The translations under genes and the position numbers were made by a program. The notes below the pieces were generated by a model. The model searched no databases. It had not been told where the DNA came from and was given only the letters and a program-made list of their open reading frames with translations. A stretch of DNA of 64,000 bases from Bacillota bacterium (GTDB lineage: Bacteria > Bacillota > Ch66 > Ch109), in the NCBI GenBank assembly GCA_013178275.1, contig JABLWZ010000011.1, positions 89,422 through 153,421 of the forward strand. Direction: 5' to 3'. This document shows, piece by piece, positions 21,963 to 49,910 of the stretch. Position 1 is the stretch's first letter; each line of letters begins with the position of its first letter.

Positions 21963-21976
21963 TTCAATGCAGATCC

Positions 21977-22039
21977 AGGCAAGGTTTTGTAAGAATTAGA
22001 CACGATTTTGCTACTTTATGACTATAAATATAGACAGTC
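21977..22039 (+). promoter_or_regulatory. 21-nt phased direct repeats (site A), candidate LytTR operator
   Basis: AGGCAAGGTTTTGTAAGAATT | AGACACGATTTTGCTACTTTA | TGACTATAAATATAGACAGTC, upstream of the gene starting at 22152. Confidence 0.5.
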
Positions 22040-22151
22040 AACTTTGGGATTGTTAACTTAGGGTTTGCTGAAAAACCGTCAAGGCCTTAAAACAACGGGT
22101 GACGCTGGTGCCATCTTTTCGCCTTAGTCCGTTAAAGGGGTTGAACTGTTT

Positions 22152-22985
22152 ATGAGGATAGAAGTAAAAAACGAGTTCTCCTATATACTATTTTTTTCGG
22201 TTATCCTGTTGATTCTTATGGATGTAAGCGTAACTGTACGGGTTGCCTTGGGTGTGCCTTTTGTCCTGTTTTTTCCCGGGTATACCTTAATAGCAGCCCT
22301 GTTTCCAGCCCGGGACGATCTCGACGGCATTGAACGGGTTGCCTTGAGCTGCGGTCTAAGTATAGCCGTGGTACCGCTTCTAGGTCTCATCCTGAATTTC
22401 ACCCCGTGGGGAATAAGGCTTTACCCCATCCTGCTGACGCTTTTGTTTTTCATGCTACTGCTGTCCATTATTACAATCCACCGAAGAAATAAACTTACTC
22501 TCGATAAGCGCTTTGTGGTTGCTTTAAACGTTAAAATAATAAAATGGAGCGACCTTTCAAGAATGGACAAAATTCTCTCGGTGGCGCTGGCGGGAGCTGT
22601 TATTTTTGCGGCCGGAAGCCTTTATTACGCCTCAGCTACACCAAAAGTTGATGAGAAATTCACCGAGTTTTACATGTTGGGTCCAGGCGGGAAGGCAGAG
22701 GGTTACCCCCGGGTTATGAAAACGGGTGAGGAAAAGGAAGTCATCCTGGGAACCGTTAACCACGAATACCGCCAGGTTTCCTATTCCGTCGAGGTGCGAA
22801 TGGATGGGGTTGTGATGACGCGACTAGGTCCTTTTAAAATAAACCACGAGGAAAAAAAGGAAGAGTCAGTTAGCTTCAGTGTTTATGAACCCCATGAAAA
22901 TCTGAAGGTAGAGTTTCTACTATTTAAAGACGGAGAGAGCGCCCCCTATCGATCCCTGCATTTGTGGGTGAACGTTCATGAGTAG
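22152..22985 (+). CDS. DUF1616-like membrane protein
   Basis: N-terminal 4-5 TM helices (..VALGVPFVLFFPGYTLIAALFP..DLDGIERVALS..) plus a C-terminal beta-rich soluble domain. The family name is from memory. Confidence 0.55.
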   Translation: MRIEVKNEFSYILFFSVILLILMDVSVTVRVALGVPFVLFFPGYTLIAALFPARDDLDGIERVALSCGLSIAVVPLLGLILNFTPWGIRLYPILLTLLFFMLLLSIITIHRRNKLTLDKRFVVALNVKIIKWSDLSRMDKILSVALAGAVIFAAGSLYYASATPKVDEKFTEFYMLGPGGKAEGYPRVMKTGEEKEVILGTVNHEYRQVSYSVEVRMDGVVMTRLGPFKINHEEKKEESVSFSVYEPHENLKVEFLLFKDGESAPYRSLHLWVNVHE

Positions 22986-23802
22986 ACTACGGGTACATAT
23001 CCAAATACATATCCCAAAATGGGATTTCGTTATCAAAAGTACTGTTTCTAATAAAGATCACTTTTTAATCTGGCTGTATGCGGCCGCTGTCACTGCCGCG
23101 GAAGTTGTCACGGCCTACTACAACCCGATTTACGGGGTCGCCGGTCACGTGGTTTTGCTGGTAGCCTTGCTCGTACACGCTTCCTTGGCTTATAAGCAAG
23201 CTATAAAACTGATTTATCTGTCTTTGTCCCTGGCTCCGATGATCCGGATCATGAGCCTTTCCATGCCGCTGATGGGCCTGCCGCCCATCTACTGGTACCT
23301 GATCATCAGTCTTCCGCTTTTTGTTACCGCCGCTTTGGTAATGCAGTATGCCGGTTTTAAGCCCCGGGAGGTCGGGCTGATTGTGGGTAACCTGCCCCTT
23401 CAGTTGCTGGTGGCGTTCATCGGGGTGCCGCTGGGCCTGATAGAGTACCTGATTTTAAAACCCACTTCCCTGGTGCCGGGGCTTGCCTTGCAGCACGCCT
23501 GGCTTCCAGCGCTGATCCTGCTTGTCAGCACCGGGTTTTTAGAGGAATTTATCTTTCGTGGGATTATGTATCGTGCGGCTGTGGAGACTTTAGGCAGGTG
23601 GTACAGCATTATCTATATCAGTTTCATATTCGGGGCGCTGCACATCACCCACCGTTCACCGGTAGAGCTGGTTTTTGTTTTTGCGGTGGCGCTTCTCTTT
23701 TCCATAATCGTTGACTTTTTCAGATCCCTTTTGGGTGTCTCCCTAGCTCATGGAATAACGAATATCAGTTTATACATTATATGGCCGTATTTTTTAAGCT
23801 GA
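22978..23802 (+). CDS. CPBP-family intramembrane glutamic protease (CAAX protease-like)
   Basis: EEFIFRG and FGALH motifs in a polytopic protein. The start overlaps the upstream stop. Confidence 0.8.
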   Translation: MSRLRVHIQIHIPKWDFVIKSTVSNKDHFLIWLYAAAVTAAEVVTAYYNPIYGVAGHVVLLVALLVHASLAYKQAIKLIYLSLSLAPMIRIMSLSMPLMGLPPIYWYLIISLPLFVTAALVMQYAGFKPREVGLIVGNLPLQLLVAFIGVPLGLIEYLILKPTSLVPGLALQHAWLPALILLVSTGFLEEFIFRGIMYRAAVETLGRWYSIIYISFIFGALHITHRSPVELVFVFAVALLFSIIVDFFRSLLGVSLAHGITNISLYIIWPYFLS

Positions 23803-23980
23803 AAAAAGAATATTTGAGTAAAAAGAAACGCACAACATTTTCTCGCGACCCTCAAAATCGAGTGACGGAAGCGCATATACAAGTATGGGATATATAGAGA
23901 TTCGTGTTTTAGCGCTATCCTATAAGGTTCTGGGGTCTATGTTGCAGGTAAGCTGAACCGAGCTGAACCGGTGAAAAATA

Positions 23981-24030
23981 AGGCGAGAAATTGTAATTTT
24001 TAGACAAGAAAATGTAACTTTTAGACAAGG
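23981..24030 (+). promoter_or_regulatory. 21-nt phased direct repeats (site D), candidate autoregulatory LytTR operator
   Basis: AGGCGAGAAATTGTAATTTTT | AGACAAGAAAATGTAACTTTT | AGACAAGG, ending 59 nt upstream of the agrC-like start. Confidence 0.55.
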
Positions 24031-24088
24031 CGAGCAGGAACCGGCTTCCTTTATCAATAAATAAATCCGGGATAAGGAAGGTGACCAT

Positions 24089-25522
24089 TTGGATACGATT
24101 ACCCCCTTTTTTTCCTTGTTAATGGTTTCGTTTCCGGAAGCGGTCCTGGTAGCGAGCCTGGGATTTCTACTGGTAGGGCTCAAACCCTGGTGGCGCGATT
24201 TACTTATAATCGGGGTTTTACAGGCGGGTTTTTCTTATATCATCCGGCTCCTGCAGGTGCCTTTTGGGCTCCACTCAATCTTTGAAATACTTTTATTCGT
24301 TCTAAATATTCGCCTGGTAACCCGCCTGCCATACCGGATAGTTTTACTTGCATCTTTACTTGGCCTGATTTTTTACGGCTCAGTTGAAACGATAGCAGTT
24401 CAGTTCATGCTGCATATCGAAGGTTTCTCATTGACCGATGTTTGGAATAATAACTCTATAAAAATTATATTCTTTCTTCCCCAGGCCCTGGTCATGCTGA
24501 TATTTATAGCAGCCTGTAAAGCTTTTAATATCTCTTTAATCGATTATACCCAAGAATACAATCGTTCAGGATACTTATCGAGAAAGGAATTTCAGGACAA
24601 TTTGAAGGTAGACATCGTTAATAAACATAATCTTTTTATATTTGTAGTCGTTCTCCTGCCATTACTTTTACTGGTCATATTGAACACTACCTTTGAGGCA
24701 GCCAGGTTGAACATTTTCCCGGGAGAGCATTTTATCATCTTTAACGGGCTCATGGGATTATTCATTATTGTTTTAACGGTACTGTCCACTGTCGCTGTAA
24801 AAAAAATCGGACAGTATATAGAAAAGGAATACGAGGCTAAGAGAGCGGAGGAAAACTTAAAACAGATCAAGCAGTTGATTGACTCTTCTAGAAAGCAGAG
24901 ACATGACTTCCACCACCAGCTGCAGACTATTTACGGACTGCTGGAAGGCGGCTCCTATGAGCGGGCGCGGGATTATATAAGCAGGGCGTTCGGTGACATA
25001 TCCAAAACCGCGGAATTGATAAAAATTGACAATTTTAGTATTGGCGCCCTTCTCTACACCAAGATAGGACTGGCTGAGGCCAGGAACATCGAAATGGAAA
25101 TAGCCGTTGAATGTAGCCTCAAAGAGATACCTTTAACTCCTCATGAAGCAAGCTCCTTACTCGGGAACCTGATTGATAATGCGCTTGAAAACGTGGAAGC
25201 TAAAGCCGGTGAAAGCAGGCGGGTAAAAGTAAAAATAGTCCGTGAACCGGGGGCATACGTAATCATAATAAGCAATACCGGGAGCCCTATCTCTCCCAAA
25301 ATCAGAGAAACCATGTTCAAACCCGGTTTTACTACCAAAGAAGATCACTCCGGTTTGGGCCTGTCAATCGTCAAAGATATCGTCTCCAAACACCGAGGCA
25401 GCATCGCGATAAGCAGCGATACTGAAGAAACGACTTTTACCATTACAGTACCGCTCAAAAAAGAGGTGAGGTTGAATGAATCTAAGTCAAATGGCTGGAG
25501 GAACCGCAAACTATCTGGCTAA
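24089..25522 (+). CDS. agrC: AgrC-like (HPK10) membrane sensor histidine kinase
   Basis: About 6-7 N-terminal TM helices. H-box RKQRHDFHHQLQTIYGLL. GHKL ATPase motifs (LLGNLIDNALENV, ISNTG, TTKEDHSGLGLSIV). Confidence 0.8.
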   Translation: MDTITPFFSLLMVSFPEAVLVASLGFLLVGLKPWWRDLLIIGVLQAGFSYIIRLLQVPFGLHSIFEILLFVLNIRLVTRLPYRIVLLASLLGLIFYGSVETIAVQFMLHIEGFSLTDVWNNNSIKIIFFLPQALVMLIFIAACKAFNISLIDYTQEYNRSGYLSRKEFQDNLKVDIVNKHNLFIFVVVLLPLLLLVILNTTFEAARLNIFPGEHFIIFNGLMGLFIIVLTVLSTVAVKKIGQYIEKEYEAKRAEENLKQIKQLIDSSRKQRHDFHHQLQTIYGLLEGGSYERARDYISRAFGDISKTAELIKIDNFSIGALLYTKIGLAEARNIEMEIAVECSLKEIPLTPHEASSLLGNLIDNALENVEAKAGESRRVKVKIVREPGAYVIIISNTGSPISPKIRETMFKPGFTTKEDHSGLGLSIVKDIVSKHRGSIAISSDTEETTFTITVPLKKEVRLNESKSNGWRNRKLSG

Positions 25523-26144
25523 AGAGCTGTCGCTGGATACCGGTAAAACCGATACTTTACGCTTCGGCTTGGAAATAATTTTAGCTGTTCTCATTAAAGG
25601 GATTATCCTTCTCAGCCTAGCCCACTTCCTTGGAATACTTCCCGAAGTGACGTTTGCGATGGCTTGTGGGGTTATTTACCGGCTTCTCAGCGGTGGAGCC
25701 CACTGCAATGGCTATTGGAGATGCCTTACCTTGGGAGTTTTGAGTTATCTCGGGGCCGGAGAACTGGGATTATACTTGGGAAGTTATTTATCAAAAGATT
25801 TGCTGGTATATTCACTGCTGGCCGGATATTTGCTATCCTCCCTCTGCATTATAGCCTGGGTGCCGGGGGAAGTACCTTTTAAAAAAATTACAATAGTTTC
25901 CGAAAGAATCATGTTTAAACTCCTTTCGCTGGGCTATCTCAGTTTATGGTTAGGGACCAGTATAATTATTGTTCACTATACCAGTTCATCTCTTGCCGTT
26001 GCCGGTCTTATTGCTGTTATTATCCAGACGATCAGTTTTTCTCCGCCCGGCTACAAGACAATCTACCAGTTAGATAAACTTTTGGCAGGATTAGCAAGAT
26101 TATTTAAAGAAAGGAGGTGCTTGGCCAATGCTGCGGATCATTAA
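25476..26144 (+). CDS. agrB: AgrB-like peptide-processing membrane protease
   Basis: YRLLSGGAHCNGYWRC region carrying the conserved His/Cys pair of AgrB. Polytopic. RBS AAGAGGTGAGG. Confidence 0.85.
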   Translation: MNLSQMAGGTANYLAKELSLDTGKTDTLRFGLEIILAVLIKGIILLSLAHFLGILPEVTFAMACGVIYRLLSGGAHCNGYWRCLTLGVLSYLGAGELGLYLGSYLSKDLLVYSLLAGYLLSSLCIIAWVPGEVPFKKITIVSERIMFKLLSLGYLSLWLGTSIIIVHYTSSSLAVAGLIAVIIQTISFSPPGYKTIYQLDKLLAGLARLFKERRCLANAADH

Positions 26145-26259
26145 AAAACTGATGTTTACACCGGTGGTTATGTTGGCTCTTTTGGTTGCCGTTGTCGGTA
26201 TCAAGCCAGCTAGTTTCTTTTGGTTTTACCAACCCGCTCCCCCTGTGAAGTCTGAATAA
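26128..26259 (+). CDS. agrD: AgrD-like autoinducing-peptide precursor (43 aa, not in ORF track)
   Basis: ATG 26128 lies 9 nt after AAGGAGGTG and overlaps the agrB end. Sequence: MLRIIKKLMFTPVVMLALLVAVVGIKPASFFWFYQPAPPVKSE. It has an amphipathic/hydrophobic leader, an aromatic core and a Pro-containing charged tail. Confidence 0.7.
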   Translation: MLRIIKKLMFTPVVMLALLVAVVGIKPASFFWFYQPAPPVKSE

Positions 26260-26276
26260 AGGACGGGAGATCTCAC

Positions 26277-27047
26277 ATGAAAATAACCGTCTTGATCGCT
26301 GAAGATGATCCGGACATGCGTCATGTGATCAGAAAAGTGGTTGAAGAAATTGAAGATGTAAGAGTCGTTGGCGAGGCCGGAGATGGGCTAGAGGCCATAA
26401 AGTTGATTGAAGAGCTATCACCTCAAGTGGTCTTTGTAGATATCGACCTGCCAGGGAAAAATGGCATTGAACTGGCCCAGGAAATATTCGATATCAAACC
26501 GTGGACCATTATTGTCTTTGCTACAGCTTTCAGCGAATTCAGAGGTGAGGCTTATGATGTCTATGCTTTTGACTACCTCGTCAAGCCCTTTAAAATGAAC
26601 CGGGTTCGGCAGACAATGGAGAGGATCAAACTAATTCTGTCCAGTCAGGCTGCTGGCAGGCCAAGGCCTAACTCAAAAAATCTTAATCATAAAAATGTAA
26701 GCCGGAAACAATTTTTTAGAAGCGATAGCAAACTTATTTATTTGAACCTTGATGACATCATCTATGTCACAAGGGAAGGCCGCAAGTCCACGATCTATTT
26801 TATTGGCGGGCAAATTCAAACCAACAACAAACTCTCTGTTCTTGAAGAGCAATTAGCGGGGTATCCATTTTTTAGAAGCCATAGCGGGTTCATTATAAAT
26901 TTAAATATGGTCAAGGAGCTTATTCCAATCAGCAGAAGCAGCTATGAACTGGTTATGGAAAACACCAAGAAAAGACCTTTGATAACAGTTGAAAAGTTTA
27001 AGGAACTGGAAGAAATGACAAATGTAAAAGTTCCAAAAATTAGCTGA
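26277..27047 (+). CDS. agrA: LytTR-family response regulator (AgrA-like)
   Basis: REC domain residues (AEDDPDM, VFVDIDLPGKNG, KPF). C-terminal LytTR domain (..IIYVTREGRKSTIYF..FFRSHSGFIINLN). Confidence 0.9.
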   Translation: MKITVLIAEDDPDMRHVIRKVVEEIEDVRVVGEAGDGLEAIKLIEELSPQVVFVDIDLPGKNGIELAQEIFDIKPWTIIVFATAFSEFRGEAYDVYAFDYLVKPFKMNRVRQTMERIKLILSSQAAGRPRPNSKNLNHKNVSRKQFFRSDSKLIYLNLDDIIYVTREGRKSTIYFIGGQIQTNNKLSVLEEQLAGYPFFRSHSGFIINLNMVKELIPISRSSYELVMENTKKRPLITVEKFKELEEMTNVKVPKIS

Positions 27048-27161
27048 AGAGTTCTAGGGGGTGAATCAAAATCACTGACTATCCAGGCTGCTGGGAGGAT
27101 AGACCGCGGCCAAGGGCAAAACTTCGATAAAACCTGATTTTTAAGCGATTTGGTACACTTT

Positions 27162-27192
27162 GGCACTGTTTATACGGTGCCTTTTTATTTTT
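27162..27192 (+). terminator. rho-independent terminator after the agrA-like gene
   Basis: GGCAC-tgtttatacg-GTGCC plus TTTTTATTTTT. A second hairpin GAAGGGGTTC-caaat-GAACCCTTC plus TTTGTTTT lies at 27243-27274. Confidence 0.65.
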
Positions 27193-27290
27193 ACCTGGCT
27201 GATGTTCCAATAATCCTAGACGCAAAGTTCCAAAGAGCAATTGAAGGGGTTCCAAATGAACCCTTCTTTGTTTTAATAAATGACAAATCC

Positions 27291-27353
27291 AGACACGATA
27301 TTGCTACTTTTAGACAAAATATATAGACAATCAATTTTAAGCTTGCTACTTTT
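27291..27353 (+). promoter_or_regulatory. 21-nt phased direct repeats (site B), candidate LytTR operator
   Basis: AGACACGATATTGCTACTTTT | AGACAAAATATATAGACAATC. TTGCTACTTTT recurs 42 nt (2 x 21) downstream at 27343. The site is upstream of the gene at 27415. Confidence 0.5.
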
Positions 27354-27414
27354 GGGTTGACTAATAACCTTAAATTGTCCTTTAAAAAGCTGACGTTGAA
27401 AGGAACTATCCGGT

Positions 27415-28623
27415 ATGAATTATTATGACGCCATAGTGATTGGTGGAGGACCGGCGGGCTGTGAGACAGCCCGACTTCTTGCTGAAAAAGGTTATAAGGT
27501 GATGGTAGCCGAGGAGCACCGGAAAATTGGTGAGCCCATCCAGTGCGCGGGGCTCGTTAGTCTTAGAACCTTGCAAGCCGCAACCATATCGGTTGGCATA
27601 ATCATCAACCAGATCAAAGGCGCCTTTATCCACTCTCCTGGCGGCGAAGTACTTTCTATCAGGGACCGAGAAGCATACGCCTTTGTGATCGACCGCACGG
27701 AATTTGACCGCAAGTTGTCGGAAAGGGCTCAATGTGCCGGCGCGGAAATCCTGACCGGGGTCAGGGCCAGTGTAGGCGAGTTTTTGCCCTATGAGGCCAG
27801 CGTAAGGTTAAAAGCTGACGGCGGAGAGACTACAGTCAAAACCCGTTTGCTGATCGGGGCCGATGGGGCCAACTCCCGTGTTGCCCGTCGGATCAATGCT
27901 CCCGGAGCGGAGGACGTGATCCGCATGTACGCAGCCGAAGTGGAATTAGAGTGCCTGGAAAAAGATATGGTTCACATTTTCCTGGGCCGGGAAATCGCAC
28001 CGGGCTGGTTCGGATGGGTCATACCGGTAGACGAAAAGCACGCAAGAGTGGGGATCGGTGTAAGCGGGGGAGACAAGCATCCATTATTTTACTTTAAAAG
28101 GATGATGAATGCCCACTCCGGAGTTTTTAAGGGCATGAATATTGTCCGTGGCACCGGTGGCGTTGTTCCTATCGGTTTGCCTTCCAAAATTTACAGCGAG
28201 AGAACGATGCTAGTGGGGGATGCTGCCTGCCAAACCAAGCCCATATCAGGGGGAGGGCTGTATCTTGGGCTGCTGGGAGCGGGACTCTGCGCCAAAGTGG
28301 CAGCTCAAGCGCTCTCCAAAGGAGATCTATCTTCAGAGTTCCTTTCACAGTACCAGCGGTTATGGGAGAGGGAGATGGGGGACGAAATACAGACGGCCCT
28401 CGCGCACCGGAATATTTTCCTGACTATGTCCGATAAGGAAATGGATGTATTGATTCATTTTTTCAGGCATCCATTATGGCAGAGTATTATATCCAGATAC
28501 GGCGATATCGACTATCCATCGAGGTTGGCAGGTATATTATCATTCGCCGGGCCTTGGGCAGAGAAGTTTTTTCTAGTTGGATGCAGAAAGATATTGCGCT
28601 ACTGCTCGACAGTCCGGGCTTAG
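27415..28623 (+). CDS. geranylgeranyl reductase-family FAD-dependent oxidoreductase
   Basis: YDAIVIGGGPAGC dinucleotide fold, LIGADGANS, LVGDAACQTKPISGGG. Confidence 0.8.
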   Translation: MNYYDAIVIGGGPAGCETARLLAEKGYKVMVAEEHRKIGEPIQCAGLVSLRTLQAATISVGIIINQIKGAFIHSPGGEVLSIRDREAYAFVIDRTEFDRKLSERAQCAGAEILTGVRASVGEFLPYEASVRLKADGGETTVKTRLLIGADGANSRVARRINAPGAEDVIRMYAAEVELECLEKDMVHIFLGREIAPGWFGWVIPVDEKHARVGIGVSGGDKHPLFYFKRMMNAHSGVFKGMNIVRGTGGVVPIGLPSKIYSERTMLVGDAACQTKPISGGGLYLGLLGAGLCAKVAAQALSKGDLSSEFLSQYQRLWEREMGDEIQTALAHRNIFLTMSDKEMDVLIHFFRHPLWQSIISRYGDIDYPSRLAGILSFAGPWAEKFFLVGCRKILRYCSTVRA

Positions 28624-28814
28624 AAAGAAACTATTTTATGGTAAATTTTTGTACATGATTCGTTAGCAGGAATAGGCAATAAAGAATTACCTGAGCCCCT
28701 GAAAGAGAAGCCGCCGGAGCAAGTGCAAATCAACTGTGATGTTCGGAGGTAATAAGAGATAGTTTAAATTATTTAAAATTATCGATTGAGCTTTTGGAAC
28801 AGGGGGTATGAATA

Positions 28815-29531
28815 GTGTCTATGGAATCTGAGGATGCAGCAAATAAAAGTCAAATAAAACCCAAAATTACAGCTCTTTTATGTACCCTTAATGAGGAAAA
28901 AAACCTGCCATATGTATTGCCAAAAATTCCGCCTGATGTGTACGAGGTTTTAATAGTCGACGGTTATTCCAAAGATAATACTGTTCAAGTAATAAAGCAA
29001 CTCCTTCCTAGGGCCCGGATATTACTCCAACCTGGTAAAGGTAAAGGTGACGCGCTCAGATACGGTATCCGAGAAGCAAAAGGCGATATTATTGTTATGC
29101 TGGATGCTGATGGATCAATGGCTCCAGAAGAAATACCACTGTTCGTTGAGCCTCTGTTGGGAGGGTATGATTTTGTAAAGGGATCAAGGTTTCTACCTGG
29201 TGGCGGCACGTCAGATATGTCTAAGCACAGAATTTTTGGGAACTGGGTTTTCACTACACTTACAAATATACTTCATCGCTGTCGCTATACCGATCTCTGT
29301 TATGGATATAATGCCTTCTGGAAGAAAGCTTTTGAAGCGGTGAATTTCAAAGGTAACGGATTCGAAGTGGAGACTGAAATTAACATAAAAATACGTAAAT
29401 TAGGACTGAAAGTTGCTGAGGTACCTAGCTTTGAGGCGGAAAGAATCAATGGTGAAGGGAAGCTGCACAGCCTAAAGGATGGATGGAGAATTTTAACTAC
29501 TATCTTTAAAGAGGTTAGGACATCGGTATAG
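28815..29531 (+). CDS. GT2 glycosyltransferase, DPM1/polyprenyl-phosphate-hexose synthase-like
   Basis: Soluble 238-aa GT-A protein with IVDGYSKDNT, LDADGS (DxD) and FEVETEI motifs. Confidence 0.8.
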   Translation: MSMESEDAANKSQIKPKITALLCTLNEEKNLPYVLPKIPPDVYEVLIVDGYSKDNTVQVIKQLLPRARILLQPGKGKGDALRYGIREAKGDIIVMLDADGSMAPEEIPLFVEPLLGGYDFVKGSRFLPGGGTSDMSKHRIFGNWVFTTLTNILHRCRYTDLCYGYNAFWKKAFEAVNFKGNGFEVETEINIKIRKLGLKVAEVPSFEAERINGEGKLHSLKDGWRILTTIFKEVRTSV

Positions 29532-29572
29532 TTGGCTTTTTAAAACTTGATTATATTACTTTGAGGTAAACG

Positions 29573-30739
29573 ATGCATATCTGTATTGTTGGTTCGTCCA
29601 AAAAATTTTTTAGTGGGATATCTGCTTATACCATTGTCATGGCCAATGCTTTTGCTGAACGTAGGCACAAAGTATCGGTTATACTTTTACGAAATCTTGT
29701 GCCGCTGTTCTTCTATCCTGGACGGGACCGCGTAGGCAAAGGAAAATATATAGTTGATTTTCTTCCCGGTATAAACGTATACAACGGTATGGACTGGAAT
29801 TCGCCGATTTCCTGGTACGGTGCGTACCGTTTTCTAAAAGAGAATAAACCGGACGCCACAATTTTACACTGGTGGACCTCTTCGGTAGCGCATATGCAAT
29901 TGTTGCTGGCACTGGCTAAAAATATGAACGGGGAAAAGAACAAGGTAATACTAGAGATGCATGAGGTCGTAGACACGTTAGAAGAAAAAATTATTCCTTT
30001 ACGCCTTTACTCCAGGGTAGCGGGGAAGGGTTTATTAAAACTATGCGACGCTTACACGGCACATTCAAATGATGCCAGGCAGTCTATTATTAAAGCATAT
30101 AACATACCGCAGGACAAGATTCATGTTGTTCCTCACGGGCCCTATAATGCGTATGGAACCGATGACAGCAAAGATGATGGAAATGAATTGAAATTGAATG
30201 GTTTTACTATACTTCACTTCGGTATGATCCGGCAGTATAAAGGTATATCGCTGTTAATAAAGGCTTTTAATATGTTACCCGAGGAGATTGCAGGCAATTC
30301 TAATTTGATTATTGTTGGCGAGGATTGGGGGGATGATGCGGAACTTTTACCAGCACTTAATGAATCTCCCTATCGCAATAGAATTATTTTTCAACCGGAG
30401 TTTTTACCAGATGAATTGGTACCAAGATATTTTAACGCGGCCGATGTGGTTGTATTACCCTATTTGCGTACCTGTGGCAGCGGGGTTGTCAACATTGCGG
30501 TCGCCCAGGGCAAGTACATAATTACCTCGGAACTCAACACCATGAAAGAGTCTCTCGGGGAGTATAAAGGAGTTGCTTATTTTCCGGTAGGAGATACTAA
30601 TACGCTTCGTAACCGGTTAATTGAGGCATATGATAAATGGCGGTTCGGAGAGATAGAGCATTATCATTATTCAGACACATCCTGGCAGTTTATTGTTCAG
30701 CAATATGAAAAAATCGTTGCAGCAATAAAAAATCAATAA
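29573..30739 (+). CDS. GT4-type (GT-B fold) glycosyltransferase
   Basis: 388 aa. The C-terminal half has the retaining GT-B pattern (..FGMIRQYKGI..LIIVGE..AADVVVLPY..). Confidence 0.75.
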   Translation: MHICIVGSSKKFFSGISAYTIVMANAFAERRHKVSVILLRNLVPLFFYPGRDRVGKGKYIVDFLPGINVYNGMDWNSPISWYGAYRFLKENKPDATILHWWTSSVAHMQLLLALAKNMNGEKNKVILEMHEVVDTLEEKIIPLRLYSRVAGKGLLKLCDAYTAHSNDARQSIIKAYNIPQDKIHVVPHGPYNAYGTDDSKDDGNELKLNGFTILHFGMIRQYKGISLLIKAFNMLPEEIAGNSNLIIVGEDWGDDAELLPALNESPYRNRIIFQPEFLPDELVPRYFNAADVVVLPYLRTCGSGVVNIAVAQGKYIITSELNTMKESLGEYKGVAYFPVGDTNTLRNRLIEAYDKWRFGEIEHYHYSDTSWQFIVQQYEKIVAAIKNQ

Positions 30740-30785
30740 AAATAGTACTCTTTTTATTGTGCTGCTCAATTATGGAGGAACCGTG

Positions 30786-31937: not shown

Positions 31938-31953
31938 ATGAGGGTACAGTTTC

Positions 31954-32943: not shown

Positions 32944-32950
32944 AAATCCA

Positions 32951-36039: not shown

Positions 36040-36092
36040 CTGATTTCTTGGTAAAAATCGAAAGTAAAAACTTTTAAAGGGTTGAGTTCATT

Positions 36093-37424
36093 ATGGCTAA
36101 ACCTATTCACGGGACTAACTTAGCGGATTCTCACCTGATCTTAGATTTATGCTTCAGGTGGATAAATAAGCCTCTTTACAATAATGCAATTTATCTCATG
36201 CTGAACAATATTATAACTTGTTTACTCGGTTTTGCTTTTTGGAATATTATGGCCCGGTTTTATACGCCTTCACAGGTAGGTATTGGCGCTTCACTGATCG
36301 CAGCATCAAGCCTCATCGGCATTCTTGCTGAATTGGGATTGAGAATCGGTTTAATCCGGTTTATTCCAGAAAGCAGAGAAAATGCGGGATTGTTGATAAA
36401 CGCTGTTTTTACTATAGCCGGCCTATCATCCATGGTTGGGGGAGTGATTTACCTCGTTGGCATAAAAATCTGGTCGCCGGCGCTCAGCTTTATTCAGGAA
36501 GACATTTGGCTCCTATTATTGTTCTTAATATTTACCATGATGAATTCATTGTCTGGTCTAACTGATAGTTCATTAATAGCGGGTCGGGCATCAAGGTATG
36601 TTTTATTTAAAAATACCCTGGTCTCTATACTCAAGATTCCTCTACCAATTTTTATTTTTACCCACCTTAAAGGTTTTGGAATCTTTGCCGGTAATGGAAT
36701 AAGCATCGCTGTTGCAGTTTTAATTGCCTGGTTATTGTATCTATCTAAGGTGTATAAAGGCTATTTGCCGAAGCCGGTAATAGCAAAGTCTATATTGAAG
36801 AAAGTGCTGCCCTATTCATTTGCAAACTATATGGCGAATATGCTTAACCTGTCTCCACAGTTTATTTACCCGCTGATGGTGCTAAATGTACTTGGTCCAG
36901 AAAATAGCGCGTATTTTTACATTGCTTGGATGATGACGATGGTATTAGTGGTAATCCCAAACGGGGTATCGCAGTCTCTACTGGCTGAGGGTTCCTATAA
37001 CCCGCATAAAATGGGGCGCGATGGGTGCAGTGTGTTGTATCTGTCGCTGGCGTTATCTGTTCCGGCGGTTGCGGCTATGACGGTTATGGCGAGCTGGCTG
37101 CTCCACTTCTTTGGCCCTGGATACGCCGAGTATGGCACCCCGGTGTTTCAGTTTTTAGCACTCGCTATAATACCTCAATGCATAAATACTCTTTATATCA
37201 CGGTGAACCAAATCAGAAAGCAGGTATTCCTTATAATCGCCCAGACTGGTTTTTTAGCGATTGTCGCCATTGGAGTCGGTTACTGGTGGTTTGGCCGCGT
37301 CGGTCTGCCCGGGTTGGGGATGGCTTATTTGCTAGCCCATTCAGTCCTCGCTTTAATCGTTATCAGGCCGCTGCTGAAGGTGCTGAAAGAAAAAAGCAGG
37401 GTTACCGTTCTGGAGCATAACTGA
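36093..37424 (+). CDS. Wzx-like oligosaccharide flippase (MOP superfamily)
   Basis: 443 aa with about 12-14 TM helices, in a polysaccharide gene context. Confidence 0.7.
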   Translation: MAKPIHGTNLADSHLILDLCFRWINKPLYNNAIYLMLNNIITCLLGFAFWNIMARFYTPSQVGIGASLIAASSLIGILAELGLRIGLIRFIPESRENAGLLINAVFTIAGLSSMVGGVIYLVGIKIWSPALSFIQEDIWLLLLFLIFTMMNSLSGLTDSSLIAGRASRYVLFKNTLVSILKIPLPIFIFTHLKGFGIFAGNGISIAVAVLIAWLLYLSKVYKGYLPKPVIAKSILKKVLPYSFANYMANMLNLSPQFIYPLMVLNVLGPENSAYFYIAWMMTMVLVVIPNGVSQSLLAEGSYNPHKMGRDGCSVLYLSLALSVPAVAAMTVMASWLLHFFGPGYAEYGTPVFQFLALAIIPQCINTLYITVNQIRKQVFLIIAQTGFLAIVAIGVGYWWFGRVGLPGLGMAYLLAHSVLALIVIRPLLKVLKEKSRVTVLEHN

Positions 37425-37496
37425 TTGTTCCTGCGATTAAAGTCCAATGTGTAAATTGCATTTAAAACGTCTTCTTATGAAAGGATTATATCTGTT

Positions 37497-38072
37497 ATGT
37501 TGCTATTGGCGCACGTTGGTTTAGCTCTGGGCTTTACCAAAGGTTTGGAAAAGGTCTTGAGCTGCCGGGGCATGAACGACTGTACGGAATTAATAGATTA
37601 CCGGCTTGTCTTTGGGGGTTCCATGCTACCGGACGTGATTGACAAGCCGCTGGGAGGACTTATATTAGGGTCGACGCTTGGAAACGGGCGTATATACTGT
37701 CATACCCTGTTATTTCAACTATTTCTGCTTATTTCAGGCATATATTTATGCTTTAAATACAAGAGGCCAGAACTGTTCGTGGCGGCCGGAGGCAGCGCGA
37801 TTCATTGTATTTTAGATGGTATGTGGTACTTCCCTGAAACTTTCCTATGGCCGGTATACGGTTGGAGTTTTCCGGAAGGAGATCCTGGGAACTGGTTGCG
37901 GCTGTGGGTGAATCTCCTGGCCGACCCCAAGTACTACATCCCGGAAATACTTGGTGGCGCTATTATTATAGTCTTTTTTACAGAGCTGGTTATTCGCAAA
38001 AATTTATACTGTTTTTTGGTAAGTGGAAAAGTGAAAGGCGGTATTACTCCACCGGAAGAGGATGCTGTTTAA
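37497..38072 (+). CDS. membrane-bound metal-dependent hydrolase-like protein (DUF457/YdjM-like, tentative)
   Basis: N-terminal LLLAHVGLALG and LPDVIDKP motifs, several TM helices. Confidence 0.4.
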   Translation: MLLLAHVGLALGFTKGLEKVLSCRGMNDCTELIDYRLVFGGSMLPDVIDKPLGGLILGSTLGNGRIYCHTLLFQLFLLISGIYLCFKYKRPELFVAAGGSAIHCILDGMWYFPETFLWPVYGWSFPEGDPGNWLRLWVNLLADPKYYIPEILGGAIIIVFFTELVIRKNLYCFLVSGKVKGGITPPEEDAV

Positions 38073-38097
38073 TTGTTAGTAACGAAAGGAGGATTAT

Positions 38098-39174
38098 GTG
38101 ATGCCTTTTGCTGTAATCATGGCTGGCGGACGGGGAGAGAGATTTTGGCCGCGTAGCCGAATGGCGGAGCCCAAGCAGTTTTTGAATCTCATCGGTGACA
38201 AGACCATGCTTCAACTCACTATGGAGCGGGTGGAGGGCTTGGCTGAAATATCTGATACATATATAGTGGCGGGTTCGGATTTTAAAGATATCATCATGGA
38301 GCAGGTGCCGCAACTGCCAGAAGAAAATATTATCGTCGAGCCCTTCGGGCGGGATACCGCGGCTGCCATAGGGCTGGCCGCTTTGGTCCTGGAGCGTAAA
38401 GACCCCCGGGAGGTAATGATTGTACTACCGGCGGACCATTATATCGGCGATGTCCCCCGTTTCCAGAAGGTGCTGAAAAGCGCGGTGGCGGCGGCCTGGC
38501 GGGGAGAAAACATAGTGACGCTGGGCATCACTCCGAACCGGCCTGAAACTGGATATGGGTATATTTACCAGGGGGAGTTGTACAATGCCTTTGCCGGCAC
38601 GCCGGCCTACCGGGTTGTCCGTTTCCTGGAAAAACCTAATTACGCGAGGGCTGTAAGATTTCTTTCAATCGGTAATTACCTTTGGAACAGCGGAATGTTT
38701 ATCTGGCGGGTGGATTTGATTCTTCAAATGATTGAAAAACACACCCCGCAACTGGCTCGGGGCCTGAATAAGATTGGGCCGGTTATAGGGACGGAACAAT
38801 ACTTGGCCGTGTTGGGAGAAGTTTACGCGGGGTTGCCCAAAATCTCGGTGGATTACGGTATCCTGGAAAAGGCGGAAAAGGTCCTGGTGATGCGGGGGGA
38901 CTTCGGCTGGGACGATATCGGCTCCTGGGCAGCTCTGGATCGCTACGCAGGAAAGGATGAGCGAGGAAATGTCATTGAGGGTCGGGGGGTTCTGCTGGAC
39001 ACAAGCGATACCTTCATTTATTCCCCTGACAAGACGATTGGTGTAATCGGGGTTGAGAGTTTAATCGTGGTGAACTACCGCGACAGTTTTCTGGTATGCC
39101 GCAAGGACCGGGCCCAGGAGATCAAAAAGGTTGTGCAGGCTTTAAAGGACCAGGGCCTGGATGAAGTGCTGTAA
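38098..39174 (+). CDS. manC: mannose-1-phosphate guanylyltransferase
   Basis: FAVIMAGGRGERFWPRSR..PKQF nucleotidyltransferase loop. LPADHYI. No C-terminal isomerase domain. ATG 38101 is an equally good start. Confidence 0.85.
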   Translation: MMPFAVIMAGGRGERFWPRSRMAEPKQFLNLIGDKTMLQLTMERVEGLAEISDTYIVAGSDFKDIIMEQVPQLPEENIIVEPFGRDTAAAIGLAALVLERKDPREVMIVLPADHYIGDVPRFQKVLKSAVAAAWRGENIVTLGITPNRPETGYGYIYQGELYNAFAGTPAYRVVRFLEKPNYARAVRFLSIGNYLWNSGMFIWRVDLILQMIEKHTPQLARGLNKIGPVIGTEQYLAVLGEVYAGLPKISVDYGILEKAEKVLVMRGDFGWDDIGSWAALDRYAGKDERGNVIEGRGVLLDTSDTFIYSPDKTIGVIGVESLIVVNYRDSFLVCRKDRAQEIKKVVQALKDQGLDEVL

Positions 39175-39211
39175 TGCCAAACGCTATGTAGCTTAAAGGA
39201 GGCATCTCAAC

Positions 39212-40594
39212 ATGGTAACGGTTAATGAACATATTTTTCGCCAGTATGACATCAGGGGCGTAGCTGAACAGGATCTTTCAGATGAGGTAGTAACCCTCCT
39301 GGGTAAAGCCTTTGGGACTGTAGCCTTACAAAGGGGCTTATATAAAGTACTGGTGGGGAGGGATAACCGCCTCAGTTCCGAACGCTTGCGGGACGCCCTG
39401 GTAAAGGGGCTTATGTCCGTTGGATGCGATGTGATTGATATAGGTCTGGTAGTCACGCCGATGCTTTACTACACCAGGATCTACTTTGGCATTAATGCTG
39501 CGGTGATGATTACCGGTAGCCACAACCCACCAGAAGAAAACGGATTTAAAATCGCCCTGGGAGCTGGGACCATCTACGGACATGATATTCAAAAGCTCAA
39601 AGAATTAATGCTGGCCGGGGAGTTTCCATACGGTTCGGGAAGCCTTGGAATGTTAAACTGCATCTTTCCGTACCTAAACATGCTGATAGAAAAAATAAAG
39701 CTTGGTCCACGAAGGTTAAAAGTGGCCGTGGACTGCGGCAACGGTACGGCTGCCTTGTTTGCTGAAAAAATATTACGAAACTGGGGCTGCGAGGTGATAC
39801 CGCTGTATTGTGAATCCGACGGCTGCTTCCCGAACCACCAACCGGACCCGGTAAAGACGGCTAACCTGGTGGAGTTGAAAAAAGCGGTGCTGGAAGAGAA
39901 GGCGGATCTTGGCGTAGCCTTTGACGGTGATGCGGACCGCATCGGGGTGGTGGACGATACCGGGAATGTTATCTGGGGAGATATGCTGATGTGCATTTAC
40001 TGGGAGGAAATCATGCCAAAGCATCCCGGGGCCGAGGCTATCGTCGAAGTGAAGTGTTCCCAGGCTCTGGTGGATGAAGTGGAGCGCCTCGGAGGCAAGC
40101 CTTTCTTCTATAAGACCGGGCACTCCTTGATCAAAGCCAAGATGAAGGAAATTGGGGCGGTCTTCACCGGGGAGATGTCCGGACACATATTTTTTGCAGA
40201 CGAGTTTTTCGGTTTTGACGACGCCTTTTACGCCGCCGGCCGCCTTCTGCGGATCCTCTCCAATTCCGATGTGCCGCTCTCAAAGATGCTCTCGGCTATA
40301 CCAAAGTATTACTCCACGGCTGAAACCAGGATTGCTTGCCCGGACCGGAAAAAATTCAAGGTGGTAAGCGGGCTGGCTGAACGTTTTAAGCGGGAATATC
40401 CCGTGCTTGATGTGGATGGGGCGAGGGTGCTCTTTGGCGACGGGTGGGGCCTGGTACGGGCTTCCAATACCCAACCCGTGCTGGTGGCCCGCTGTGAGGC
40501 AAAAACTGAAGAAGGAGTGCGTCGTATTTGCTCCATTATGAAAGAAGCCCTGAAGGAGTTCCCAGAAGTGGAAGATTTTGAGTGGGAGTATTAA
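39212..40594 (+). CDS. phosphomannomutase/phosphoglucomutase
   Basis: Active-site TGSHNPPEENGFK, metal loop FDGDADR, sugar loop GEMSGH. Confidence 0.9.
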   Translation: MVTVNEHIFRQYDIRGVAEQDLSDEVVTLLGKAFGTVALQRGLYKVLVGRDNRLSSERLRDALVKGLMSVGCDVIDIGLVVTPMLYYTRIYFGINAAVMITGSHNPPEENGFKIALGAGTIYGHDIQKLKELMLAGEFPYGSGSLGMLNCIFPYLNMLIEKIKLGPRRLKVAVDCGNGTAALFAEKILRNWGCEVIPLYCESDGCFPNHQPDPVKTANLVELKKAVLEEKADLGVAFDGDADRIGVVDDTGNVIWGDMLMCIYWEEIMPKHPGAEAIVEVKCSQALVDEVERLGGKPFFYKTGHSLIKAKMKEIGAVFTGEMSGHIFFADEFFGFDDAFYAAGRLLRILSNSDVPLSKMLSAIPKYYSTAETRIACPDRKKFKVVSGLAERFKREYPVLDVDGARVLFGDGWGLVRASNTQPVLVARCEAKTEEGVRRICSIMKEALKEFPEVEDFEWEY

Positions 40595-40662
40595 GCTCCA
40601 TTTGAAATTACATGGTAAGAGGTTGAAAATATAAAACCAATTTGCTTTAAGAGGGGATTCGT

Positions 40663-41802
40663 TTGACCAGGCTGAAAGAATTTGACTACATACGGGCAAT
40701 TTCTATTATCGCGGTAATTATGATTCATATTGGGACTTCAGGTCTTATAGTCCGGTATGGAAATGAGATAACCTTAAAACACCCCATGAGTACATATTAT
40801 ATATATCACCAGGTAACGGCGTTTGCAGTATCGGCGTTTGTTTGCATATCAGGATTAGTTCTTTGCCTGAGATATAAAGATAAATCCTTTAATTACATCA
40901 AATTTATCGGGACACGTATTTGGTATGTAATAATCCCGTTTGCTATATGGACATTGGTGTATTTGAAAGTGAACAACCTGATAACTGCAGAAGAAGGTGG
41001 GAAAGCAAGTCTTCCGTTTGACCAATTAGGCTTTGCCTTGTTAAGTGGAGGATCCTATTATCACATGTATTATATCCCCCTGATTTTTAGCCTTTACCTT
41101 CTATTCCCTCTTTTCAGGTGGTTCGTAAAGAGGTTTAAGTCTCCGTGGTGGCTTTTCTTATTGTTGCTGATCCAGCACTATGCACAAATAAGGTTAAATG
41201 ATGCGTTGTCCCCGGAGGCCTTAAAATTATTCCAGTTCAGATATTTTGTTTTCCTTTTTGCAGCGGGTTGTTATATTGGCGAGTACTACGACGAAGTAAA
41301 AGCATTTATTAACAAACACATTAACGCAGTTGTTGGCCTTGTGAGCGCAGTATTGCTATATAAAATAGTATTTTTCTATTACAGCGTCTTCTACCTGAAA
41401 ACACCTTTCAAGGATGTACCGCAGACCATTACTTTTGACAATAAAATTTACACCCTGCTTATTGTCGCCCTGATAATTTACATCACCCCGCAGGTTAAGA
41501 ACCGGGTTATCGATTTGATTCTCGACCGGTTAGGGAAAAACTCCTTCGGGATATACCTAATTCACCCGCTTATCCTTAAAGGCATTGAAGATATCGTTAA
41601 ACAAAACAAGTGGTTTAGTTTAAGCAGTGAGGCCGTTTTGGGTGTTCTCATAATAATTGTAACTATAAGCTATGCGATATCAGAGCTTGCTAATCTAATT
41701 CCTTATGGTTATCTGCTGGTTGGTAGAAACGACAGGCCGATCGGACCGCCAAAACTACCTAAATTGAATGATATTGTGACTATTGAAGTGATAAAGAAAT
41801 AG
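40663..41802 (+). CDS. acyltransferase family 3 (O-acetyltransferase-like) membrane protein
   Basis: N-terminal FDYIRAISIIAVIMIH motif, about 10 TM helices. Confidence 0.8.
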   Translation: MTRLKEFDYIRAISIIAVIMIHIGTSGLIVRYGNEITLKHPMSTYYIYHQVTAFAVSAFVCISGLVLCLRYKDKSFNYIKFIGTRIWYVIIPFAIWTLVYLKVNNLITAEEGGKASLPFDQLGFALLSGGSYYHMYYIPLIFSLYLLFPLFRWFVKRFKSPWWLFLLLLIQHYAQIRLNDALSPEALKLFQFRYFVFLFAAGCYIGEYYDEVKAFINKHINAVVGLVSAVLLYKIVFFYYSVFYLKTPFKDVPQTITFDNKIYTLLIVALIIYITPQVKNRVIDLILDRLGKNSFGIYLIHPLILKGIEDIVKQNKWFSLSSEAVLGVLIIIVTISYAISELANLIPYGYLLVGRNDRPIGPPKLPKLNDIVTIEVIKK

Positions 41803-41832
41803 ATAATTGTTATAAAAAGTGAGGATAGGGAC

Positions 41833-43020
41833 TTGGCTTTACTGTTCTTTTCCATTCAAAATGCCTTTCGTAAAAAAGCGGTGGCGGCCCTTGCGGTACT
41901 GGGGGTGGCCTTTGGCACCGCGCTCATGACCATCCTTTTTTCCCTCGCCGGGGGAATGGACCACCGGGTGGAAGGCACTTTTAGTGAGCTTGCCAACCGG
42001 GTCACGATTTCCGGCCGGGACGCTATTTTTGGCGGGTTGTATTTAGGTATGGGCACTCGACCGATACCCTCTTCCTATATTGATACCATTAGAAACATAC
42101 CCCATGTGGAAAAGGTCTATTCCCAGGTTTCGGTAGTTATGCGGCCACAGAACATGGACTACGTTATGCCTTTATTTGGCTACGACACGGAAGAAATTCA
42201 TGATCTGGACAACAATCCTTATAACAGAATTATCGAGGGAGCCGCTCCCAGCAATGAAAAGGAGATAATAATTGGAAAAAGTCTGCAGGAATATATGAGT
42301 TTATTAAATTTCCACTATGCAATCGGCAACTCTTATCCTTTTATTATCATGGAGGGAGACCGGGCAAAGGAGCTGGACGTAAAAATTGTGGGTGTCTACC
42401 AGACCGGCAACGAGGTTTTGGACGGGGCCTTCAGCGGTTCTGAAAAATTGGCCAGGGAGATAGGCAAGATACCAGAGGGGAGCGTTTCCGCCATCAACGT
42501 TGCTGTTGACGGGGTGGAGAATGTGGAGTCCACTGCCAAGGCCATTCAGCAAGAGTTATCGGGTAAAAAACCGGAACTGCAGGTGGTGGTGCCGGGAGAG
42601 GTTTTAAATCCGGTCAGAAATATACTTGACGTCTTGGGCAAGTTTTTGATGGCCGTTTCCCTGGTGGCCGTAGTGGCCGGGGGACTGTCCATCATGGTGG
42701 TGATGCTTTTATCCGTGATCAACCGGATGCGCGAGTTCGGCATTCTGAAGGCTCTGGGGTGGACTCCGGCCAATATCGTCTTCATGGTACTGGTGGAGTC
42801 TCTGGCCCTGAGCCTTTTGGGTGCCGCCCTGGGAGTGGCCTTGGGCTGCGCGGGACTTGCCGTGGCCAGGGTTTTAATTGCCGAGGATATCGCCGCCCTG
42901 TCCTGGCAGGTCACGGTCAGCGTGTTAGCGGCCGGTGTTCTGATCGGGGTGGCGGGAGGAATTTACCCGGCCTGGCGTGCGAACAGCGCGGCGCCGGTAA
43001 AGATTCTCAGGGAAATTTAA
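41833..43020 (+). CDS. ABC transporter permease, FtsX/MacB-like
   Basis: N-terminal TM helix, large extracytoplasmic domain, C-terminal 3-TM FtsX module (..REFGILKALGW..). Confidence 0.8.
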   Translation: MALLFFSIQNAFRKKAVAALAVLGVAFGTALMTILFSLAGGMDHRVEGTFSELANRVTISGRDAIFGGLYLGMGTRPIPSSYIDTIRNIPHVEKVYSQVSVVMRPQNMDYVMPLFGYDTEEIHDLDNNPYNRIIEGAAPSNEKEIIIGKSLQEYMSLLNFHYAIGNSYPFIIMEGDRAKELDVKIVGVYQTGNEVLDGAFSGSEKLAREIGKIPEGSVSAINVAVDGVENVESTAKAIQQELSGKKPELQVVVPGEVLNPVRNILDVLGKFLMAVSLVAVVAGGLSIMVVMLLSVINRMREFGILKALGWTPANIVFMVLVESLALSLLGAALGVALGCAGLAVARVLIAEDIAALSWQVTVSVLAAGVLIGVAGGIYPAWRANSAAPVKILREI

Positions 43021-43040
43021 ATCATGGAGGTTTTGCTTGG

Positions 43041-43706
43041 ATGCAGCCGGACGTGTTGATTGCTGTTAAAAATTTGACCAAGGTTTACGGAAAAGGTAAT
43101 CTCGCGGTAAATGTGTTGGATATTAAAAACCTGGAAATCAGGAGGGGGGAACTTGTGGCGCTGATCGGTCCTTCCGGGTGTGGTAAAACCACTCTGCTGA
43201 ACCTTTTGGGTGCCCTGGACCGGCCCACCGCCGGCGACATTTTTTTCGAGGGGAAAAGGATCGCCTTGAAAAGAGAGGCAGCCCTTTGCAGGTTTCGCCG
43301 GGAAAAAATCGGCTTTATCTTCCAGGCCTATCACCTGATTCCCACTTTGAGTGCCCTGAAGAATGTGCTTGCGCCAGCCCTCCCGCTGGGAAACGATTGC
43401 CGGCAGCGAGCGTTGGAGTTATTGCGGCTGGTGAGCCTGGCGGGCAAAGAAGGTCGCCGCCCGGGCGAGCTTTCCGGGGGAGAACAGCAGCGGGTGGCCA
43501 TTGCCCGGGCACTTCTGCTGGATCCGGATTTGATCCTGGCGGACGAGCCTACGGGTAATTTAGACTCGGCTACCGGAGCGGGAATTATGGCTTTGCTGAA
43601 GAAGTTGAACCAACGGGGGAAAACAGTGCTGGTGGCTACCCACGACCAGCGGGTGGCGGAAAATTGCGGTAGGAAAATCAGGATGATGGACGGGCAGGTA
43701 ATCTAA
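43041..43706 (+). CDS. ABC transporter ATP-binding protein (MacB/LolD-like)
   Basis: Start ATG 43041 gives [52 protein letters not shown]. The 282-nt 5' extension in the ORF track overlaps the permease and is rejected. Confidence 0.9.
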
Positions 43707-43729
43707 TCCGATTGAGTCATTGTAAATAC

Positions 43730-43792
43730 AGGCATGGTTTTGCAGGAAACAGGCAAGACCTTGCTACTTTTAGGCAAAAATTATAGACAGTC
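43730..43792 (+). promoter_or_regulatory. 21-nt phased direct repeats (site C), candidate LytTR operator plus promoter
   Basis: AGGCATGGTTTTGCAGGAAAC | AGGCAAGACCTTGCTACTTTT | AGGCAAAAATTATAGACAGTC. TAGACA, a 16-nt spacer and TATATT (43806-43811) could form the core promoter. Confidence 0.5.

Positions 43793-47225: not shown

Positions 47226-49910
<2,685 letters not shown>

Follow-up and report, generated by a model that had tools for sequence, protein, structure and literature searches.

The stretch analysed here comprises 64,000 nucleotides (nt) of contig JABLWZ010000011.1 from a Bacillota bacterium (assembly GCA_013178275.1), and this whole 64-kb stretch is referred to as the window. It contains an agr-like peptide-signalling locus together with four intergenic sites, termed A, D, B and C in order of position, at which a 21-nt unit is repeated head to tail upstream of a gene. 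The genes of the locus lie on the + strand, and the neighbouring-gene identities proposed in a first-pass annotation were confirmed by Pfam. A DUF1616 membrane protein (22152-22985; PF07760, E=2.4e-88) and a CPBP/Rce1-like protease (22978-23802; PF02517, E=5.1e-14) precede the agr-like operon (24089-27047), which has the order agrC-B-D-A with the regulator gene last. The operon encodes an AgrC-type (HPK10) membrane kinase (24089-25522; PF14689, PF14501 and PF02518, i.e. SPOB_a plus GHKL), an AgrB peptidase (25476-26144; PF04647, E=3.4e-31), an AgrD-like peptide of 43 aa (26128-26259; reading ...KPASFFWFYQPAPPVKSE, no Pfam match) and a receiver plus LytTR regulator (26277-27047; PF00072 and PF04397), the only LytTR regulator in the window. 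A search of PDB sequences with the LytTR half of this protein returned weak matches only (3d6w, E=2e-4).

The AgrD-like peptide is encoded by a small open reading frame (ORF) beside agrB, in which a Cys/Ser plus four residues stand before a conserved C-terminal tail. The ring position is Ser in the window (KPASFFWF) and Cys (KPACFFWF) in four of the seven orthologs examined, with Ser also found at loci L006 and L110 (labels of this form denote the comparison loci). Cys or Ser at one position across orthologs is as expected for the AgrD ring residue, and the Ser of the window would imply a lactone instead of a thiolactone signal. The canonical agrB-D-C-A order was not found: agrC-B-D-A occurs here and in close orthologs, and L108 has agrC-A followed by agrB-D.

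An intrinsic terminator follows the regulator gene (27162-27190, + strand, also delimited as 27162-27181; GGCACTGTTTATACGGTGCC then a T-run), and site B therefore constitutes a separate promoter. Beyond it, co-directional genes with short gaps make up a putative target operon, the glycan cluster (27415-43706, + strand), headed by a geranylgeranyl reductase (GGR)-like gene (27415-28623). The cluster encodes the GGR-like flavoprotein, GT2 and GT4 glycosyltransferases, a radical SAM/SPASM enzyme, an epimerase, a pyruvyl transferase, a 596-aa protein, a flippase, YdjM, mannose-1-P guanylyltransferase, phosphomannomutase, acyltransferase_3 and an FtsX/ABC pair. Terminator-like matches inside the cluster are at background level, and it is plausible that it is transcribed as a single operon from site B over 16 kb. 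The 596-aa ORF (34249-36039) lies in a stretch of 32.5% GC and has no Pfam match; syntenic ORFs of 575-596 aa, also without a Pfam family, are present in L001 and L002. After the cluster comes the gene of an 87-aa membrane protein (43947-44210, + strand) with a Thr/Ser/Ala-rich N-terminus and two hydrophobic segments, which belongs to no Pfam family and is 67-78% identical in relatives.

Sites A (21966-22059), D (23970-24063), B (27280-27352) and C (43719-43811) are all on the + strand and each lies 5' of a + strand gene. The two to three head-to-tail 21-nt units reported for each by the first-pass annotation were found, with their cores in a 21-nt register. The predicted operator of site A (21966-22028) consists of three phased units with cores AGGCA (21977), AGACA (21998) and TGACT (22019), the last being TGACA in orthologs, and is located upstream of its putative targets, the DUF1616/CPBP pair. 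That of site D (23970-24032), upstream of agrC, also has three units (AGGCG 23981, AGACA 24002, AGACA 24023). Site B (27280-27321), upstream of the GGR-like gene, has two (AGACA at 27291 and 27312) and lacks the distal unit, as does its counterpart in S. glycolicus. Site C (43719-43781) has three AGGCA cores (43730, 43751, 43772) upstream of its putative target, the small membrane protein gene. The proposal that AG(A/G)CA cores are spaced by 21 nt throughout is exact as to spacing, but the first core of site D and the third of site A depart from that sequence, and site B has only two upstream units. The gap of six to seven nt originally placed within the unit was in error: the actual gap is five (AGACA-CGATA-TTGCTACTTTT), and a gapped pattern with six matched nothing. 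Likewise, TTGCTACTTTT is indeed repeated exactly in site B 42 nt on (27301 and 27343), but the 27343 copy forms the extended -10 and no third binding unit. The only exact copies of TATAGACARTC in the window are those of sites A, B and C, at 22029, 27322 and 43782.

The repeats stand well clear of background. Allowing up to two mismatches, TTGYWAMTTTTAGRCA has four matches in the window against 0.58 expected, and none of 100 shuffles reaches four. When a 26-nt matrix was trained on three sites, the held-out site ranked first on both strands of the 64 kb in each case, with scores of 24.6-33.5 bits compared to 10.9-15.3 bits for the best background position. Tandem Repeats Finder independently detected site D (23986-24029, period 21, 2.1 copies, 91% matches). 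The whole-window repeat search was dominated by a coding array of 9-nt period at 47.5-49.3 kb and is uninformative on the 21-nt motif.

Alignment of 90 units from 30 sites gave the consensus aTG.aA.aTTtAGACAaGAtt, and the predicted binding unit is better phased as wTG-N8-AGACA-GAT, with an aATGCAAATCC element preceding the first core. Most promoters have three units, of which the two proximal ones are the most informative (22-23 bits versus 18 for the distal). The units recur at two helical turns, hence on one face of the DNA, and directly abut the -35 hexamer, with AGACA cores at about -89, -68 and -47 relative to the inferred start. Across 36 sites, divided into 28 non-agrC promoters (class I) and eight agrC promoters (class II), the predicted promoters have a conserved -35 hexamer 12 nt beyond the third core and a conserved -10 at 35 nt from it. 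In class I, TAGACA is found at +12 after the third core in 24 of the 28; a spacer of 17 nt, with TGC or TGT as its last letters, then leads to TAACTT, TAAGTT, TAATTT or TACTTT (TGn-TAAnTT). This conservation supports the suggestion that TAGACA acts as the -35 box. Class II retains the 35 nt from third core to -10, with CAGGAA at the -35 position and ATAAATA as -10, both conserved. When the agrC upstream regions of six genomes are aligned, the blocks conserved close to the gene prove to be the three units, GGCAGGA and ATAAATA.

The predicted core promoters of the window, all on the + strand, follow this geometry. Site A (22031-22059) has TAGACA at 22031-22036, a 17-nt spacer and the extended -10 TGT-TAACTT at 22051-22059; site B (27324-27352) has TAGACA at 27324-27329, a 17-nt spacer and TGC-TACTTT at 27344-27352. 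Site D (24035-24063) has CAGGAA at the -35 position (24035-24040), a 17-nt spacer and TAAATA at 24058-24063. At site C (43784-43811), TAGACA (43784-43789) is separated by 16 nt from TATATT (43806-43811), and this pair, already singled out in the first-pass annotation, was also picked by a generic promoter scan with 10/12 matches. The sequence GGCAGGA(A/G)C is invariant at the -35 of all agrC promoters (24032-24040 in the window; L001-L004, L014) and absent from the other three promoter types; an unusual -35 box and a site for another factor are both candidates for its role. The possibility that the conserved GGCAGGAAC of agrC promoters is a sigma-54 element was dropped on inspection, as the GG-N10-GC spacing does not fit.

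The repeat architecture is present at the same positions in about 12 related genomes, comprising Syntrophobotulus, Pelotomaculum, Desulfocucumis and metagenome-assembled genomes of Peptococcaceae. These positions are upstream of DUF1616 and of agrC, behind the regulator gene, and in front of the gene of a small 87-89-aa membrane protein. Orthologs of the regulator in Peptococcaceae and in these three genera are 60-86% identical. Four loci served as the main comparison: Syntrophobotulus glycolicus DSM 8271 (L001), a BRH_c4b-like contig (Peptococcaceae; L002), Pelotomaculum terephthalicicum JT (L003) and Desulfocucumis palustris (L004). Gene order is kept in all four as DUF1616(+CPBP), agrC-B-D-regulator, (a 343-346-aa gene), (the small 87-89-aa gene) and the GGR cluster. 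In each of them, a matrix trained on the window alone finds the motif precisely 5' of DUF1616 and agrC, and likewise 5' of the small gene and of whichever gene follows the regulator, every match being on the coding strand. All copies are intergenic and face the downstream gene at 105-220 nt. Orthologs of site A precede DUF1616 in L001-L004, L032, L059, L112 and L113, those of site C precede the small gene in L002, L003, L004, L111 and L114, and the autoregulatory (agrC) position is conserved in L001-L004, L014, L110, L112 and L113.

Two differences in gene arrangement accompany this conservation. The small Thr/Ser-rich gene lies between the regulator and GGR in relatives (L002 12291-12557, L003 10996-11259, L004 12714-12983), whereas in the window it comes only once the entire glycan cluster has ended; every copy is accompanied by a promoter copy of its own, and the L112 ORF is apparently truncated after five codons. 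In two relatives the gene directly after the regulator encodes a 343-346-aa secreted protein with a weak Big_2 match and its own triple-repeat promoter (L002 10982-12022, L004 10985-12016), of which no homolog was found in the window.

The motif goes together with the regulator. A 20-kb locus with a regulator of at least 74% identity contains 4-8 matches of at least 18 bits, compared to 0.00-0.02 in block shuffles, and five further orthologous metagenome loci and six further genomes from a pattern scan display the same motif pattern. In contrast, the motif is absent (maximum 11 bits) from 24 control loci of the metagenome regulator scan that contain unrelated regulators (202 kb). Every locus with a regulator ortholog of at least 61% identity carries it, as does L110 (Desulfofundulus thermocisternus) at 47%; an orphan paralogue beside ribosomal genes (L109, 52% identity) has no motif. 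The association persists where the genes around the regulator differ. L005 and L066, with regulators 73-74% identical and no agrBD, have the motif before an operon running from an acyltransferase gene to a histidine kinase-response regulator (HK-RR) pair and before the gene after the regulator; L005 has it also before an MFS gene. In L108 (61%) the motif stands between regulator and agrB-agrD, preceding agrBD. L110 has a TTTYAGACA triple at 21-nt period the same distance upstream of agrC, and the motif recurs there behind the regulator gene, while an inverted copy precedes a radical SAM gene that runs divergently on the opposite strand. The genes common to all motif-bearing loci are the kinase and this regulator only. 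Motif and regulator stay together in altered gene surroundings, even at 47% protein identity.

The pattern AGACAMGNNNWTGNWRNTTTNNGACA was also scanned over 185,579 species genomes, a collection without the source genome and S. glycolicus. It matched 101 stretches, about 70 being estimated by chance; eight, all of this clade, adjoin orthologs of the genes described here, and the full architecture occurs only in stretches of that group. All three matches in P. terephthalicicum JT and both matches in BRH_c4b are inside the locus. As pattern matches in related genomes occur only at the locus, the element is not, at the stringency used, a repeat scattered through the genome. Computation directly shows the motif and its phasing, the conservation of both motif and promoter geometry, and the link of the motif to the regulator gene.

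These observations make it probable that the repeats are operator sites of the locus's own AgrA-type regulator. Site D would then be the autoregulatory site of the regulator operon; the proposal in the first-pass annotation that this LytTR protein autoregulates agrCBDA is supported in silico by the motif kept before agrC across orthologs, with binding as the predicted step. The local regulon it outlined, namely the DUF1616/CPBP pair, the glycan cluster and the gene at 43947, is similarly supported by the orthologous sites. For site B to govern all of the 27-43 kb cluster, the cluster would have to be one long operon, which we assume from the short gaps, and the quorum-sensing dependence of the regulon is presumed. 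No terminator was found between the CPBP gene and site D in the window, and read-through from site A into agrC is possible.

It is improbable that the repeats are bound by a transcription factor encoded elsewhere, such as Spo0A or the regulator of a second agr-like system, with adjacency to the LytTR gene reflecting coincidence or co-regulation. The 0A box bound by Spo0A is TGNCGAA (reverse complement TTCGNCA), one base off the TTAGACA core. The organisms are related to spore formers, and in L001 and L002 the third unit before agrC, TTTTCGACA, forms a perfect 0A box when read on the opposite strand. Yet only these two of the 90 units read TTCGACA on the + strand; the others have TTAGACA or similar, with A where Spo0A needs G, and the conserved unit extends over ~16-21 bp with a strict 21-bp period and is not a 7-mer. 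In addition, the genomes scanned have the extended motif at this locus alone, a distribution at odds with a global sporulation regulon. A second agr-like system is indeed present beside DUF1616 in L002 and L032, but the motif-bearing loci have only the kinase and this regulator in common, and the window has no second LytTR regulator. That second system, absent from the window, is divergent from DUF1616 (L002 1364-5167, - strand; L032 645-4410) and has a regulator about 27% identical.

Somewhat less probable still is that a single promoter cassette was duplicated during rearrangement of the locus, the units being structural promoter DNA (UP-like or curved) with no dedicated regulator. Sites A, B and C are alike over ~90 bp, including -35 and -10, and the different placement of the small gene with its promoter in the window and in relatives indicates that cassette movement occurred. 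The agrC promoter, however, has only the repeat units in common with the others and differs in its core (CAGGAA/TAAATA versus TAGACA/TAACTT), the units are kept base by base across diverged flanks down to 47% regulator identity, and the weak -10 boxes are typical of activator-dependent promoters. Finally, a dispersed genomic repeat, mobile-element remnant or transcribed RNA element unrelated to transcription initiation is hardly credible, given that all four copies in the window are 5' of + strand genes, that no comparable further site was found in its remaining ~42 kb, that matches in the related genomes scanned are confined to the locus, where copies are intergenic and oriented to the downstream gene at 105-220 nt, that the repeat/agr region of the window has no Rfam match, and that the repeats are direct rather than inverted and precede a conserved -10.

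A number of points weigh against assigning the repeats to the AgrA-type regulator. The generic sigma-70 scan called the site C promoter only, the other -10 boxes being weak with three of six positions matching, which leaves cross-genome conservation as the basis for assigning the promoters. Matches of the LytTR domain to solved AgrA structures are weak (E about 0.2). Three phased units plus a -35 box containing AGACA exceed the classical repeat pair, and distant regulon members may exist in the genomes of the source organism and of S. glycolicus, as may unrelated copies that fall short of the scan's stringency. Physical binding of the regulator, activation rather than repression, the identity of the peptide and the extent of the glycan transcript are all features that we infer from sequence. 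The AGACA-core consensus, moreover, shows no resemblance to the Staphylococcus aureus AgrA box, ACAGTTAAG. This mismatch is expected, because LytTR sites share architecture and not sequence (PMC4847170), and it does not count against the mechanism.

In the mechanism we propose for the AgrA-type regulator, a cyclic peptide processed by AgrB from ...KPA-S-FFWF|YQPAPP would activate the AgrC-type kinase, and the phosphorylated regulator would bind the phased units cooperatively and recruit or reposition RNA polymerase. The -10 boxes are weak (TAACTT, TACTTT, TAAATA), most of them being helped by an extended TGn. The regulator would switch on its own agrC-B-D-A operon, creating positive feedback, and would also activate a small local regulon consisting of the DUF1616/CPBP pair, the gene of the small Thr/Ser-rich protein, and the GGR cluster or at any rate its first genes.

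In relatives, a c-di-GMP-I or c-di-GMP-I-GGC aptamer (62-69 bits) and an intrinsic terminator are located between the CPBP gene and the triple-repeat agrC promoter (L001 7515-7621, L002 7519-7626, L003 7530-7636, L004 7349-7451, L014 192-299). No such aptamer was found in the counterpart stretch of the window (23803-23969), even at E up to 1. The arrangement in relatives suggests c-di-GMP-gated read-through into the agr operon, which if true would join second-messenger and peptide signalling at one operon. Elsewhere in the S. glycolicus locus, a ZMP/ZTP riboswitch (L001 4842-4923) lies upstream of a Fic-domain gene.

Two components of the putative regulon have an archaeal flavour, DUF1616 (22152-22985) and the GGR-like enzyme (27415-28623), and the D. 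palustris cluster includes a DUF2206 protein (L004 19770-20768). The only paper found to mention DUF1616 concerns Haloferax volcanii (PMC8241124). A GGR-like enzyme at the head of a glycan pathway hints at a saturated polyprenol carrier. A more speculative model, which we offer tentatively and consider rather doubtful as a whole, is that syntrophic and sulfate-reducing Peptococcaceae possess in this locus a conserved module for quorum sensing that is complete in itself. A higher-order LytTR oligomer would then assemble on three phased sites, the core being repeated in the -35 TAGACA, and would switch on an archaeal-flavoured surface programme (DUF1616 and CPBP protease, the small Thr/Ser-rich protein and the GGR-headed glycan pathway), with a c-di-GMP riboswitch gating basal entry in relatives.

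If the operator assignment is true, an agr-type system of Peptococcaceae or Desulfotomaculum-like anaerobes would for the first time have an operator consensus, along with a target set that is defined and conserved. Cell density would then control a programme of surface-glycan and membrane-protein genes, with plausible relevance to aggregation in syntrophic consortia. The candidate peptide is a ring of S/C-FFWF, and the clade with such systems includes the cultured strains S. glycolicus DSM 8271 and P. terephthalicicum JT.

Beyond site C, on the - strand, the window contains an 892-aa BclA-like ORF (47226-49904) with ~570 aa of collagen-like Gly-Ala/Asp-Thr triplets, (GAT/GDT)n, encoded by the array that Tandem Repeats Finder reports at 47629-49348 with period 9. 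It adjoins two - strand glycosyltransferase genes, at 44334-45413 (GT2+TPR) and 45448-47019 (Anp1/GT2).

Operators of LytTR regulators consist of direct repeats of 9-11 nt with 11-13 nt between them and have no consensus in common (PMC4847170), and AgrA dimers bind repeat pairs just upstream of P2 and P3 (PMC4227749). The sites described here agree with this pattern in their exact 21-nt period at all four places, in abutting the -35 of predicted promoters, in the presence of one before agrC-B-D-A itself, and in the co-occurrence of the motif with regulator orthologs. The likeness to P2 and P3 of S. aureus agr extends to a LytTR regulator encoded with AgrB, AgrD and AgrC, and to direct repeats of ~21-bp period just upstream of weak promoters that include that of the regulator's own operon (PMC4227749, PMC4847170). 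In both systems the regulon extends to a few extra promoters. The spacers differ, being an optimal 17 nt with extended -10 here compared to 18 and 20 nt in S. aureus P2 and P3, as do the gene order (agrC-B-D-A here) and the targets, which are membrane and glycan genes here versus toxins in S. aureus; no RNAIII-like effector is evident.

Other quorum-sensing regulons under LytTR proteins include those of PlnC/PlnD in Lactobacillus plantarum, ComE/BlpR in streptococci, the VirR boxes of Clostridium perfringens and FsrA in Enterococcus faecalis. They resemble the present case in that one regulator acts through imperfect direct repeats at several promoters of a compact, mostly local regulon (in general, PMC4847170). 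They differ from it in consensus, in the third upstream unit found here and in the -35 TAGACA that repeats the unit core. Clostridial agr (C. difficile, C. acetobutylicum, Ruminiclostridium, C. autoethanogenum) is likewise agr-type peptide signalling in anaerobic Firmicutes, with control over surface, sporulation or metabolic traits, whereas the present locus has a conserved target set of a distinct kind (DUF1616/CPBP, the small Thr/Ser-rich protein and the GGR-headed glycan cluster).

A literature search for agr in this clade, including Pelotomaculum and Desulfitobacterium, found nothing relevant, the agr work found being on staphylococci, Listeria and several clostridia; quorum sensing in the Peptococcaceae or Desulfotomaculum-like group is essentially unstudied. 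The locus follows the established LytTR/agr paradigm, and the gain is one of scope and detail with no new principle. Most likely, therefore, the repeats represent the expected kind of element, a LytTR operator, in a bacterial group where it was previously undescribed. Its departures from the textbook case are the three units in place of two, the -35 box that repeats the unit core, the 17-nt spacers with extended -10, and the set of target genes.

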